Counted from the stretch's first letter, positions 10,783 to 15,572 are shown. The stretch: 20,000 bases of DNA from an uncultured virus (IMG/VR IMGVR_UViG_3300030372_005500) (IMGVR_UViG_3300030372_005500); one strand, 5' to 3'. The notes: a model not told the origin generated them from the sequence alone. A program made the numbers and translations.

Positions 10783-10921
10783 AACAGATATGCTTGGTTT
10801 AACAATACTTATAATGTGTATAATTTATGTGATTGTTATCTTCATATATGCAGAAATTGAAGTTTATATGGAAAGAGATCCAATAGAATGGCTATTAGGA
10901 TTCGGAGAAAAAAATGAGTGA
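10775..10921 (+). CDS. 48-aa single-TM peptide (not in ORF track)
   Basis: Hand translation MNKTDMLGLTILIMCIIYVIVIFIYAEIEVYMERDPIEWLLGFGEKNE; GGAGGT RBS; fills the gap between two genes. Confidence 0.6.
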   Translation: MNKTDMLGLTILIMCIIYVIVIFIYAEIEVYMERDPIEWLLGFGEKNE

Positions 10922-11345
10922 CAAAAATAGAAAAATAGAAGAGTTTGGTAAGCGCAGAGTCTCACACAGGTCCTTGATAGAAGGGCAGGTCAAAGGCTCG
11001 AAGGAAAGATTTACTCCCAGTATCATTTCGGGAATAAATAAAATAAATATTGAGAGAGTAATAAGTAATGATGTTCCTCAAGAGGAGACTATGCCTCTAT
11101 GGAAGAATGGTAAACTTACTGGTTCAGTAATAAAAAAGGTCTGGGATTTAATAGACTTAGATTTAATTGTAAAATTAGAGAATGGTTGGAAAATAAAACC
11201 TAAACCAGGATACAATAAAACAATATATTATATCAATAGAAATGGTAAATGTTCTTGTCAAGGATATAAAGTAAGACAAGCCTGCAGTCATGCACTTGCA
11301 GTAGATGTTCTTGTTAAATTAAATCAGATGGGATGTGCACAATAG
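10914..11345 (+). CDS. SWIM-type zinc finger protein
   Basis: C-terminal CSCQGYKVRQACSHALAV fits the SWIM CxCx(n)CxH signature. Confidence 0.75.
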   Translation: MSDKNRKIEEFGKRRVSHRSLIEGQVKGSKERFTPSIISGINKINIERVISNDVPQEETMPLWKNGKLTGSVIKKVWDLIDLDLIVKLENGWKIKPKPGYNKTIYYINRNGKCSCQGYKVRQACSHALAVDVLVKLNQMGCAQ

Positions 11346-12020
11346 ATGGGCTTGCCATTTAGTGCTGTAGATTACTTTGGATTAAATCACGACTTATTGG
11401 CAAATGCAGATATATTGAAAGATGCTCATGATACTGCAGAAGTAGTATGGGACCAGGTGTTAAACACTGGAATGAGTATTAGGTCAAGGATTCCAATAAA
11501 ATACAGGCCACCAGTAGCAATCTGTATTGGTCTAAGATTATCGGGTGTAGTGTTTTCTTTTAAGACAGTAGCAGGACACTTTGGGATTAAACAGAGTAGT
11601 TTAGCAAAATATTTCAACAGAGTATCTCATTGGAAACAACCAGAGTGGATAACATTTAGTTATGATGGAGATTTGAATATTGCAGGTGAAGATATAGTTG
11701 TAGATAAAGGATTTATTAGTGTAAAACTTCCTTTGTACCTTAGATATCCTGAGATAAAAATGGGAGACATCATTGATAGTTTTAGTGCAACCCTGGGCAA
11801 ACCAGAGTTATCAAGTAAAGCGCATAAGCTATACTTAGCCTACTTAGATGAGAGGAAAGGAATAGGTGGTAGATCAATGAATGTATTTGCTGCAGCTTTG
11901 ATACTTGTATCTTCGTTAGAGAATAAAAGTAAACTATCACAGAACAATATATGCAATTCACTTGGCATTTCTAAAAGACCAATAAGGGAATGTGTCGCTT
12001 TAATAAAGGAGTGTGTTTGA
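11346..12020 (+). CDS. TFIIB/TFB core-domain homologue (two cyclin repeats, no N-terminal Zn ribbon)
   Basis: GRSMNVFAAALILVS..SQNNICNSLGISKRPIRECVALI matches the second TFB cyclin repeat and HTH; PVAICIGLRLSGVVFSFKTVAGHFGIKQSSLAKYFNRV matches the first. Confidence 0.75.
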   Translation: MGLPFSAVDYFGLNHDLLANADILKDAHDTAEVVWDQVLNTGMSIRSRIPIKYRPPVAICIGLRLSGVVFSFKTVAGHFGIKQSSLAKYFNRVSHWKQPEWITFSYDGDLNIAGEDIVVDKGFISVKLPLYLRYPEIKMGDIIDSFSATLGKPELSSKAHKLYLAYLDERKGIGGRSMNVFAAALILVSSLENKSKLSQNNICNSLGISKRPIRECVALIKECV

Positions 12021-12233: not shown

Positions 12234-12402
12234 TAAAGATGTAAAAGACCTAAAAGTGCCTTCAATGCCATTAGTAAACCCATTCAAGAGACATCCAGTT
12301 GTCCAGGCTTTAATTGATATCTCAGATCATGTACTATCATTCTTTCTATGGCTTTTATTTGGTTTACTTATTGGTTTGACGTTTAATTTTATTTTCTCAT
12401 GA
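12226..12402 (+). CDS. 58-aa C-terminally anchored membrane peptide (not in ORF track)
   Basis: MTDKDVKDLKVPSMPLVNPFKRHPVVQALIDISDHVLSFFLWLLFGLLIGLTFNFIFS; GGGAG upstream; ATGA overlap with 12399. Confidence 0.55.
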   Translation: MTDKDVKDLKVPSMPLVNPFKRHPVVQALIDISDHVLSFFLWLLFGLLIGLTFNFIFS

Positions 12403-12632
12403 GCTATTGGGAAAAGGGAAAGCAGTTTGCAGAAACTCACGTAATACCTTATACGATTATCTATTTGTCTACTTTTGTAACAACAATGATAGTTAGTGGT
12501 ATTTTCTTTATACAAGAATTTGGTTTAGAGCCAGGTTTAGCTGCAGCTTATGTTTTTACAAAGGCATTAACACCGATAAGAATGGCTACAGCAATAATTG
12601 GGACATATTATTATGTCCAAACATTTCAGTAA
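12399..12632 (+). CDS. Small membrane protein, DUF1279/FAM210-like motif
   Basis: Two hydrophobic segments with AYVFTKALTPIRMATA, resembling the AYxxxKxxxPxR motif of DUF1279. Confidence 0.5.
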   Translation: MSYWEKGKQFAETHVIPYTIIYLSTFVTTMIVSGIFFIQEFGLEPGLAAAYVFTKALTPIRMATAIIGTYYYVQTFQ

Positions 12633-13747: not shown

Positions 13748-13849
13748 TTATTGACACTTCCTACATTTCCAAACTATCTCATTTGAAATCAAAAGCGGAT
13801 TTAATGTAATACCAACTCCTGAACGTTTACAAATAGAACAATTAATCAT
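13748..13849 (-). CDS. 33-aa CxxC..CxxC zinc-finger microprotein (not in ORF track)
   Basis: MINCSICKRSGVGITLNPLLISNEIVWKCRKCQ; overlaps the upstream stop. Confidence 0.55.
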   Translation of the reverse strand: MINCSICKRSGVGITLNPLLISNEIVWKCRKCQ

Positions 13850-13973
13850 TAGACATCCATTTATGCCCTTCTCTGCAATTAAAAAAGATAGTAGGGGTCT
13901 TATCTCTATCTTTCATCTCTAAAGTTCTATACAACCAAGGACAGCTACATGTAGGGCATGTAGATCTACTCAA
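13842..13973 (-). CDS. 43-aa TFS/TFIIS C-terminal-like zinc ribbon (not in ORF track)
   Basis: TTG start; MSRSTCPTCSCPWLYRTLEMKDRDKTPTIFFNCREGHKWMSND aligns by eye to the TFS consensus CPxC...Y...QTRxADEPxTxFYxCxxCGHxW. Confidence 0.6.
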   Translation of the reverse strand: MSRSTCPTCSCPWLYRTLEMKDRDKTPTIFFNCREGHKWMSND

Positions 13974-14094
13974 AGACAACTACCCCACATTCAGTACATA
14001 GCCACCCTTCAGGGTTATGCTTCTTTCCTTGTGCACCTCTTCTGGTGTACATACGTCTCATTGCTATTCCACAGTTACAAGTTGGTTTTTTCAT
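13966..14094 (-). CDS. 42-aa zinc-ribbon microprotein (not in ORF track)
   Basis: MKKPTCNCGIAMRRMYTRRGAQGKKHNPEGWLCTECGVVVFE. Confidence 0.6.
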   Translation of the reverse strand: MKKPTCNCGIAMRRMYTRRGAQGKKHNPEGWLCTECGVVVFE

Positions 14095-14098
14095 GTTT

Positions 14099-14326
14099 TC
14101 ATCTCAAATATTCTTCTTGAATTATATTGATATTATGGTCGGCCTCTCTGGCCATTGTTTCTATTTTCTCATGGATTCTCCAGAAGTCAAGTTCAGCATC
14201 CTGGTCTTCCCATCTTAATACTTCATCTAAATGTATTCTATTTGCCTTAGTAAAGTTACGAACAATATGAATGAAAGCCCGTACCTGGTCAAGCTCAGGC
14301 ATTATAGAGGGATTGTATTCTTTCAA
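14099..14326 (-). CDS. Hypothetical helical protein
   Basis: 75-aa ORF, TTG start overlapping the nuclease stop. Confidence 0.55.
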   Translation of the reverse strand: MKEYNPSIMPELDQVRAFIHIVRNFTKANRIHLDEVLRWEDQDAELDFWRIHEKIETMAREADHNINIIQEEYLR

Positions 14327-15246
14327 GCTAACGCCCCCATGTAATCATATTCCTCAACATCATTTACCAAAGGAACATCAGATATTCTAATAGGTCCATC
14401 CTTTCCATATTTGTACATTGAACAAGCTTCCTTATAGTCACAGAATGAGCAGTTATATCCGTATTTGGGTGTAAAGATATCATTAGTTACTGCGTGAGTA
14501 AACTCTTTGCACAATTGCTCAAGGTATTCTGAATCAGCCTCATATCTCTCAGTCTTGTAGACTTTGCCAGATCTAAGATGATAATATAGTAAATCATCAA
14601 GAGGTTCACCATATAACTCATCAAAAGCAATAGAATAGATAGTAAACTGAGGATTATTATTCAATACATGAGCCTTGCCTTCTGGAGGATGTTTGTCTGT
14701 CTTATAATCTAAAACAATATTCTTACCGTCTTTAGTCTTATCTATTCTATCAATCACTCCAAGAAGGGGATATCCTCTCCAGTTAAATCTAAATCGCTTT
14801 TCAAGGCCAATTGGCTTCTCATCGTTAACATGTCTATCATAAAATTCACCCAGTATTCTTTCACCTAATTTCTTCATTGAGAAATACTCCAGGTGTGGTT
14901 TCTTTAGATACCATTTAATGTGAGATGCTAAAGTAACATTAACAACATCACCATTAGCTAACTGATAGGGATATATTTTGAATTCAGCATTATCAAGCTG
15001 TTTTCCTTTTAGTAATTCTCCAGAACACTGCAGACGCCATCTATACTTAAATGAATTAACAAAGCTCTCCCTGCTCTTATAGTTCCTCTTGTAAAACATC
15101 TCTACCATGTAGTGGATCTCTTTTCCAAAAGCTAATTGAGGAGAAATAGGAGGTTTCTCTTTAACAACATAATTAAGATAATATTTGAACGGACATGACT
15201 GATAAACAGATAACTTTGTAGCTGAAATGTGATTAATCTTCGCCAC
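14323..15246 (-). CDS. Cas4/AddB-like PD-(D/E)xK exonuclease with Fe-S staple
   Basis: SATKLSVYQSCP (Cys1), GKEIH, EKRF, GVIDRID, VLDYKT, QFTIY, and C-terminal CSFCDYKEAC. Confidence 0.85.
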   Translation of the reverse strand: MAKINHISATKLSVYQSCPFKYYLNYVVKEKPPISPQLAFGKEIHYMVEMFYKRNYKSRESFVNSFKYRWRLQCSGELLKGKQLDNAEFKIYPYQLANGDVVNVTLASHIKWYLKKPHLEYFSMKKLGERILGEFYDRHVNDEKPIGLEKRFRFNWRGYPLLGVIDRIDKTKDGKNIVLDYKTDKHPPEGKAHVLNNNPQFTIYSIAFDELYGEPLDDLLYYHLRSGKVYKTERYEADSEYLEQLCKEFTHAVTNDIFTPKYGYNCSFCDYKEACSMYKYGKDGPIRISDVPLVNDVEEYDYMGALA

Positions 15247-15448
15247 GTTTATACATTCCTTTATGGTGTCTGTATCTCTTTAATCCATCTACACAAGCAA
15301 GATAGCAATTGTTACATAGATATCCTACAGGTATGTAGTCAGTTCCTTTCTGACCTTGTTTCACCAATATAGAAACTTTTCCTTTAATAGCTTCTTTGAT
15401 AGTTCCATCAACTTCACGACAGTGGTCGCATATACTTATTTTAGGCAT
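15233..15448 (-). CDS. 71-aa zinc-finger protein
   Basis: CDHC...PVGYLCNNC; ATG 15448 preferred over the track's 15466 start because a TATA-like TTAAATAA lies about 22-30 nt upstream. Confidence 0.6.
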   Translation of the reverse strand: MPKISICDHCREVDGTIKEAIKGKVSILVKQGQKGTDYIPVGYLCNNCYLACVDGLKRYRHHKGMYKRGED

Positions 15449-15572
15449 AGTGGAAAGTATAGGCACCCTTATTTAAGAATAGTGTAGGCACCTGTATTCA
15501 CGCATACGCATAATAGAATAATCAAAGAGTATTTGCAACAACTGTTACCGAGAAAAGTGCCTTTAGAGGATG

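Follow-up and report, generated by a model that had tools for sequence, protein, structure and literature searches.

Small zinc-ribbon and zinc-finger ORFs are common in archaeal virus genomes. For two other proteins, an action on archaeal RNA polymerase (RNAP) has been described. TFS4 is reported to be a host-encoded RNAP inhibitor found only in Sulfolobales and induced by infection (PMC5715097, PMC8448823). It is reported there to inhibit through a shortened C-ribbon hairpin bearing 2–3 lysines (PMC5715097), with the N-ribbon anchoring the protein between the RNAP lobe and jaw and the linker inserting strands into the jaw, driving allosteric opening and inhibition (PMC8448823, PMC9501531). 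The second protein, RIP (ORF145) of Acidianus two-tailed virus, inhibits RNAP and mimics part of TFB, and it is the only virus-encoded archaeal RNAP inhibitor described in PMC9501531 and PMC8448823. The listings and abstracts returned by a literature search (RIP and TFS4 papers and general reviews) contained no virus-encoded TFS-like ribbon in archaeal viruses, and those returned for the virus group contained nothing matching the element analyzed here.

The window is a 20,000-nucleotide stretch of DNA from an uncultured virus (IMGVR_UViG_3300030372_005500), with a G+C content of 32–43%. A previous analysis, referred to as the sequence-only reading, had reported an unannotated 43-aa ORF at 13842..13973. 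Such an ORF is indeed present on the minus strand, the coordinates being those of the form that starts at the second of two TTG codons, and the residues quoted for it (CPTC, LY and LEMKDRDKTPTIFFNCREGHKW) were all found in its product. This ORF, the target of the present work, lies in a run of tightly packed minus-strand genes that includes a nuclease, a 75-aa ORF and other zinc-ribbon ORFs. The genes referred to below are as follows.

15233–15466, minus strand: 77-aa zinc-ribbon ORF that opens the operon
14323–15246, minus strand: PD-(D/E)XK (Cas4-like) nuclease, the anchor gene of the operon (Pfam PF12705, E 1.4e-30; phrog_69)
14099–14326, minus strand: 75-aa ORF between the nuclease and zr42, kept in the closer loci
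13966–14094, minus strand: zr42, a 42-aa zinc-ribbon ORF upstream of the target, overlapping its start by 14 nt
13842–13979, minus strand: target ORF, full form, 45 codons from the first TTG (13977–13979), directly after an in-frame TAG
13842–13973, minus strand: target ORF, 43-aa form, 43 codons from the second TTG (13971–13973)
13842–13844, minus strand: TAA stop codon of the target ORF
13748–13849, minus strand: 33-aa zinc-ribbon ORF downstream of the target, overlapping its stop, present in L001 and L009
13619–13729, minus strand: 36-aa zinc-ribbon ORF of the same operon
end of the same gene run, minus strand: 125-aa ORF and 188-aa membrane ORF
11346–12020, plus strand: TFB/TFIIB-like cyclin-fold protein (Pfam PF00382, E 1.8e-6) with no CxxC and no N-terminal zinc ribbon

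The target is one of five small zinc-ribbon genes in the Cas4-like nuclease operon. The TFB-like gene, which is kept in the related loci L001, L002 and L004, shows the element to be engaged with archaeal transcription. Also encoded in the window are an HTH protein, a SWIM-finger protein, a tyrosine-recombinase fragment, a DnaA-like AAA ATPase (phrog_5484, E 1.9e-8) and two proteins of >800 aa, both of which have a C-terminal stretch that is hydrophobic. The gene content is that of an archaeal virus or integrative element; the element is termed virus-like here because no capsid gene was identified in the window. Scans of the window for tRNAs, Rfam families and repeats gave nothing relevant.

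The upstream neighbor zr42 adjoins the target in nine of the ten related loci, in a frame different from that of the target; in L008 the nuclease sits between them. Pfam and PDB searches with zr42 gave no TFS-N likeness, hhalign against TFS-N gave 46% over 9 columns, and a complex prediction of zr42 with the target returned a score of 0.02 (mark 0.32), which speaks neither for nor against a complex. The idea that zr42 and the target are the halves of a split or frameshifted two-ribbon TFS was rejected on the grounds that zr42 lacks TFS-N likeness and that the nuclease lies between the two genes in L008. In one marine metatranscriptome run (X1), three identical short contigs were found at 14044–14338, 15079–15241 and 15264–15412. 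They leave 13842–13979 uncovered and, being contig-level data with possible DNA carry-over, are uninformative on expression of the target ORF. No contig matching the window was present in two further metatranscriptome runs.

Since no protein was found by searching directly with the 45-aa product, relatives were collected through the adjacent nuclease. Among 5.8 billion proteins, a word-index search with the product gave no candidate, the window's own product not being listed, and three matches came from a full HMMER scan over 1.84 billion representative proteins, all of them tandem-repeat or ankyrin-type artefacts and none a family member. Scans of IMG/VR with the nuclease and with the target family alignment gave no match. 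Among INPHARED phages there was no DNA match to the window, the target ORF gave only chance tblastn matches (E 7–9), and the nuclease has only distant relatives (24–26%). Nuclease homologues ranged from 98% to 35% identity, and alignment of the closest nucleases led to 27 metagenome loci and 17 genome loci, many of the latter from Woesearchaeota, Pacearchaeota or Nanoarchaeota MAGs. The nuclease is at least 55% identical to that of the window in 15 of the 27 metagenome loci, ten of which reach the target position (L001, L002, L004 and L006–L012); L003, L005 and L022–L024 end before it. A homologous ORF was found in all ten, the copy in L011 being cut by the contig end. Relative to the window, the homologue is identical in L001, 98% identical in L002, 81% in L004, 59% in L009 and 43–49% in L006, L007, L008, L010 and L012. 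No family member was found in the 12 more distant metagenome loci or the 17 genome loci, where nucleases are ≤44% identical. A profile search added three called family proteins of 55 aa (P0054–P0056), the only called members in the 5.8-billion collection. The nearest clusters in the ESM Atlas were unnamed small proteins and one DUF7838 zinc β-ribbon cluster at 0.92, which serves as a lead only. The family is unannotated and apparently confined to one group of marine contigs.

The target ORF is a real, conserved gene, since it is kept in all ten covering loci and is under purifying selection, with dN/dS values of 0.03–0.14 in the cleanest pairs. L006 and L007 differ by 10 synonymous and 2 non-synonymous changes (dN/dS 0.03, Nei–Gojobori), and the window and L004 by 12 synonymous and 12 non-synonymous changes over 22.8 and 100.2 sites, respectively (dN/dS 0.14). 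In-frame stops lie on both sides of the ORF in every related locus, and the target is a stand-alone protein with no attached domain. A TTG or ATG is found 4–7 codons ahead of the first Cys in nine of the ten related loci; L007 has none at this distance, its ATG lying 20 codons further up, and it is from this ATG that members of its clade have been called as proteins. In favor of a chance open frame between real genes are the short length and TTG start of the target, its omission by gene callers, the absence of any protein found among 5.8 billion with the 45-aa query and the lack of an RNA contig over it. Such a frame is extremely improbable here given a homologous ORF in 10 of 10 covering loci at identities down to 43–48%, an excess of synonymous changes, three relatives called as proteins and a confident AF2 fold, and the conservation pattern effectively refutes it. 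The sequence-only reading had allowed that the ORF might not be conserved; the ten loci settle that point in its favor.

The family comprises 10 distinct sequences. Its landmarks, in the window allele and 43-aa numbering, are as follows.

13947–13958, minus strand: first zinc knuckle, C6-P7-T8-C9, with C, P and C invariant in the family
13893–13922, minus strand: β-hairpin tip, L18–P27, holding D24-K25 (the "DK" of the sequence-only reading) and a 5-residue extension
13863–13877, minus strand: second knuckle, C33-R-E-G-H37 (C-x3-H), with C33, R34 and H37 invariant
13857–13859, minus strand: W39, invariant in the family

Residues C6, P7, C9, W13, L14, Y15, T17, K25, N32, C33, R34, H37 and W39 are invariant in the 10 sequences, and the family signature is CPxC-x3-WLY-x-T ... 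K ... [YF]-x-N-C-R-x2-H-x-W. All 10 have a second knuckle of the form C-R-x-[GA]-H and lack the fourth Cys found in TFIIS-type ribbons, so that the ligand set, C-x2-C ... C-x3-H, is Cys3-His. This use of C-x3-H instead of C-x2-C is a detail that had not been flagged in the sequence-only reading. AF2 gave a three-stranded ribbon, with pLDDT values of 82 for the long form of the window and 86.5 for the short form of L006. Every member carries a net positive charge (+2 to +8). These data establish the coding status, conservation, ligand pattern and fold class of the family.

Hairpin length divides the family. In the window, L001, L002 and L004 the hairpin is 5 residues longer (...T-L-E-M-K-D-R-D-K-T-P-T...) and the knuckle-to-knuckle spacing is 23 residues; the spacing is 18–20 in the other members, and 7 of the 10 sequences have a tight short turn, e.g. 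V-D-K-R-G, G-K-D-G or S-K-Q-G. The window's 5-residue extension makes its allele resemble a TFIIS/TFS C-ribbon. Seven of the 10 sequences, including four short forms, have D-K at the hairpin tip and the others have G-K or S-K; a D-E tip is absent from every member. Short-form tips carry one invariant Lys, joined in some by an Arg or Lys (D-K-R-G, G-K-D-G, S-K-Q-G), and the tip on the long hairpin of the window allele reads K-D-R-D-K. The L012 hairpin reads Q-T-R-G-K-D-G, a Q-T-R that is confined to L012/L011 and missing in 9 of the 10 distinct sequences.

The two hairpin forms have been exchanged between close relatives. In L009 the nuclease, zr42 and the 33-aa ORF are 99, 95 and 94% identical to those of the window, respectively, and the target copy is a short form at 59%. 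The divergence is limited to about 13865–13950, a cassette of roughly 90 nt with flanks 93–97% identical, and demonstrably the body of the target gene alone was exchanged in L009, as a cassette, by recombination. In the nuclease tree, rooted by DPANN-associated outgroups and with 100/100 support for a clade of 11, L008, then L006/L007/L010 and then L012/L011 diverge before the long-form clade, and all of these carry short forms. Because the long form is nested among short-form branches, the TFS-like hairpin length looks, by parsimony, like a derived 5-residue extension, and the short hairpin, the common form, is probably ancestral; this polarity rests on the tree of a neighbor gene, while the target gene itself recombines (L009). 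A TFS C-ribbon whose hairpin was later shortened is a possible ancestor, since the L012 hairpin reads Q-T-R-G-K-D-G.

The sequence-only reading had taken the target for a stand-alone TFS/TFIIS-like zinc ribbon. In its full form, this explanation holds that the target goes back to a TFS/TFIIS C-ribbon from which the acidic pair has been lost, and that it acts as a minimal TFS4-like plug, inserting into the NTP-entry funnel of host RNAP to inhibit or modulate the enzyme; we consider this unlikely. The Pfam TFIIS_C comparison proposed in the sequence-only reading gave PF01096 as the top family for the window ORF (E 0.06–0.08, aligned end to end), and five of nine members matched it (best E 0.0038), but the window ORF scored 13.2–13.6 bits against a curated cut-off of 21, none of the nine members reached the cut-off, and unrelated single-ribbon DPANN ORFs of 169 and 124 aa scored an equivalent 15.3 and 13.3 bits; true TFS proteins in five DPANN genomes scored 65–69 bits. 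At E ≤ 1, PF01096 also found matches in 11 of 14 control genomes, bacteria included. By phmmer against the PDB, 8 of the 11 matches at E ≤ 10 were C-ribbons of Rpa12, TFS, C11 or Rpb9, the best being Rpa12 (E 0.011) and T. celer TFS (E 0.013), and the latter was also the best non-repeat match of the family profile (E 0.06); TFS4, however, was not among the PDB matches at E ≤ 10 in either the sequence or the profile search. The top 9 Foldseek matches of the long form were TFS, Rpa12, C11 and TFIIS, and Rpb9, C11 and TFS ranked first for the short form, yet no match reached E ≤ 0.001, and the best geometry-only VIA-align Z score (3.8) was tied with NrdR, FlgE and chemokine hairpins. With hhalign, the family gave 77% over 36 columns against 27 DPANN TFS C-ribbons, with D24-K25 opposite D-E (all 27 sequences carry Q-T-R-x-x-D-E, which the selection pattern required). 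An HMM of the DPANN TFS C-ribbon ranked L011 (18.7 bits, E 0.0004), L012 (16.8 bits) and L004 (12.1 bits) first when the window and 44 loci (L001–L044) were scanned as 6,112 six-frame ORFs, but two unrelated ORFs outscored the window ORF, which received no more than 7.6 bits (E 1.2), and the family profile found TFS in none of 41 DPANN genomes, in 40 of which TFS genes were located. The TFIIS-type signal is not general to small Cys-rich ORFs, since the other zinc-ribbon ORFs of the operon gave quite different weak matches, none of TFIIS type. Also in keeping with an RNAP plug are the TFB-like gene of the element, the ~90-nt cassette swap of one allele, which fits pressure on a host-contact surface, and the combination of a short hairpin with an invariant Lys in the short forms, inhibition by TFS4 being attributed to a short C-ribbon hairpin with 2–3 lysines (PMC5715097). 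Against it stand the absence of the fourth Cys in all members and of Q-T-R in 9 of 10 distinct sequences, a hairpin whose length is not conserved and whose TFS-like state looks derived, and the lack of the N-ribbon and linker by which TFS4 is described to dock and inhibit (PMC8448823, PMC9501531). What stands of the sequence-only reading is a stand-alone ribbon whose top-ranked likeness is of TFIIS type; with every match below threshold and the fourth Cys missing, that likeness is too weak and too variable among relatives for the target to be named a TFS mimic.

A TFB-type origin was weighed on the same kinds of evidence. The target would then be a stand-alone TFB-type ribbon, acting either as a decoy at the RNAP dock against host TFB or as a ribbon supplied in trans to the element's own TFB-like protein; we regard this as quite unlikely. 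Against 30 DPANN TFB N-ribbons, an unbiased comparison set, the short forms gave 93% by hhalign over 25 ungapped columns, in which the family's invariant Lys aligns with the Lys conserved at the tip of TFB ribbons ([DE][KR]GE in 28 of 30). The family profile gave 59 matches at E ≤ 10 over the 41 DPANN genomes, none at a TFS gene; 14 fell exactly on the TFB N-terminal ribbon (coordinates confirmed with PF08271), corresponding to 14 of the 41 genomes with a best E of 6.8e-4 per genome. Others lie on small ORFs that we take to be RNAP subunit P. The TFB-like protein of the element (11346–12020) has no ribbon of its own, and RIP, an archaeal-virus inhibitor of RNAP, is described as acting by mimicking part of TFB (PMC9501531, PMC8448823). 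However, PF08271 is not among the 12 Pfam families matched by nine members at E ≤ 10, a TFB-ribbon HMM does not put the family first among the 6,112 viral ORFs (E 0.04–0.7), both hhalign and HMMER align the third TFB-ribbon Cys with a Tyr or Phe of the family, the target has no B-reader or B-linker, and the TFB-like gene was seen beside long-form alleles only (L001, L002, L004). The hhalign values themselves are matched by baselines between unrelated ribbon classes. The whole family gave 91% against the TFB ribbon (TFB-ZR) and 77% against TFS-C, the short forms gave 85.5% against TFS-C over 19 columns, and the three long forms, the only ones favoring TFS-C, gave 76% against it versus 64% against TFB-ZR. 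For comparison, TFS-N gave 95%, TFS-C 72% and zr42 71.5% against TFB-ZR, and since probabilities between any two of the compared classes run from 54 to 95%, hhalign cannot assign the ribbon class. These methods can assign the family to the transcription-type ribbons but do not resolve it further. The proposal that a catalytic DE had been changed to DK holds as an alignment, in that HMMER as well as hhalign puts D24-K25 opposite the D-E of TFS, Rpa12 and C11, but K25 is invariant, D-K occurs in 7 of 10 sequences and TFB tips read [DE][KR]GE in 28 of 30, and "DK" can for these reasons be taken for a TFB-like tip motif that belongs to the family itself, and need not be a mutated catalytic "DE".

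The target is best read as representing a new small basic zinc-ribbon family of transcription-factor type. The explanation that we favor, and consider probable, is a stand-alone basic Cys3-His ribbon, produced from the nuclease operon, that binds a macromolecular partner through its exposed hairpin and conserved aromatic face and does not stimulate cleavage. The uncultivated marine element, archaeal and virus-like, would translate the gene from its Cas4-like-nuclease operon, probably with coupling to the overlapping upstream zr42. A single zinc would be held by C6, C9, C33 and H37 in a three-stranded fold of ~40 residues, and the common form of the family has a short basic hairpin that matches TFB-N or TFS-N type ribbons in size and spacing. 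With its exposed hairpin and conserved W-L-Y / Y-R-N face, the target may serve as a small basic adaptor that binds its partner early in infection, which could be a nucleic acid or part of the host apparatus for transcription or replication. Lacking an acidic pair, it would be unable to stimulate transcript cleavage.

Targeting of RNA polymerase is possible on the basis of these comparisons, as a minority hypothesis. In its broadest form, a stand-alone decoy of ~40 residues, derived from either a TFS-C/TFS4-like ribbon that plugs the funnel or a TFB-N-like ribbon that blocks the dock, would act against host RNAP, and the cassette-shuffling of hairpin-length alleles between near-identical genomes would reflect an arms race over the interface with the polymerase; we think this rather unlikely. 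If the target does bind RNAP, it would be the smallest virus-encoded archaeal RNAP factor of that kind and, coming from a marine lineage that lacks a cultured host, would offer a natural probe of either the NTP funnel or the TFB dock. The family is also an instance of an unannotated micro-gene family mostly missed by gene callers, and it illustrates that a hairpin extended by 5 residues in one lineage can give a generic transcription-type ribbon the appearance of a catalytically altered TFS.

Comparison with the known systems places these features in context. With the PF01096 C-ribbon the target has in common a three-stranded ribbon, a CPxC first knuckle, an aromatic residue past the second knuckle (GH-x-W) and an F-F/Y-x-C strand, and the window allele has a knuckle spacing of 23 residues compared with 24 in DPANN TFS. 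It differs in its second knuckle (C-x3-H instead of C-x2-C), in the lack of an acidic pair in any member, in a hairpin 5 residues shorter in most members and in having no N-ribbon or linker. The TFB N-ribbon (PF08271) has the same length as the short forms and shares with the family a D/E-K tip, whereas the target uses a downstream His in place of the third Cys and has no B-reader, linker or cyclin core. TFS4 and the target are both ribbons without the acidic pair, and the short forms combine a shortened hairpin, a conserved Lys and a net basic charge; TFS4, however, is a two-ribbon cellular protein with a run of 2–3 Lys at the tip, and the target is a single viral ribbon for which, as judged from the flanking stops and the zr42 searches, neither the ORF nor the neighboring genes supply an N-ribbon or linker. 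The likeness to RIP, a small virus-encoded protein directed against archaeal RNAP, is functional only and hypothetical for the target; RIP has an unrelated fold and is described as binding the clamp inside the DNA channel. The same size and early/replication-operon setting are found in the small zinc-ribbon ORFs of archaeal viruses, four more of which occur in the target's own operon, and from these the target family is set apart by its defined, conserved signature.

The small ribbon gene differs in form between closely related loci. In the metagenome locus L009, its body (L009:881–994 against window 13865–13950) shares only ~55–60% DNA identity with that of the window, in a setting where the flanking genes are 93–97% identical. 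The gene body has been replaced in a cassette-like manner, with a short hairpin in place of the long hairpin. A further variation concerns the start of the ORF in the clade of loci L006 and L007:

L006:1964–2207, L007:893–1160 and called 55-aa family proteins P0054–P0056: extended ribbon ORF, with the frame open for 28 codons further upstream

Here, the called start is the upstream ATG, which creates an overlap of ~80 nt, in a different frame, with the gene for zr42, the neighboring upstream 42-aa zinc-ribbon ORF; the L007 ORF lacks a TTG at the usual start position. zr42 itself (window 13966–14094, minus strand) represents a well-conserved family of its own, with homologues in nine loci and invariant residues P4, C6, C8, G9, R13, R14, Y16, R18, R19, G23, H26, E29, G30, W31, C33 and C36. 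No informative match to zr42 was found in Pfam or PDB, the top hits being rubredoxin-type knuckles (E 0.04).

The closest relatives of the Cas4-like nuclease in named genomes (37–44% identity) were located on genome contigs L028–L039, from Woesearchaeota, Pacearchaeota and Nanoarchaeota MAGs, and this placement hints at either a DPANN host or related elements binned with DPANN MAGs. The small ribbon gene was present in none of these contigs. Several short open frames of 43–125 aa exceeded the cut-off of PF08271 (TFB/TFIIB N-ribbon) in DPANN genomes G010, G014, G040, G043 and others; thus, stand-alone TFB-type ribbons seem to be present in DPANN genomes themselves.

The element also carries a TFB-like gene, directly preceded by a SWIM-finger ORF:

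10914–11345: SWIM-finger ORF
11346–12020, plus strand: TFB/TFIIB-like protein, 224 aa, with cyclin repeat PF00382 (E 1.8e-6)

The N-terminal zinc ribbon and B-reader are absent from this protein, which is kept at 76–100% in three related contigs (L001, L002 and L004). Two further genes of the window are:

12399–12632, plus strand: 77-aa ORF with two hydrophobic stretches, conserved in L001, L002 and L004
7754–8611, minus strand: DnaA-like ATPase (phrog_5484)

Together, these two may be comparable to the capsid/ATPase pair of spindle-shaped archaeal viruses.
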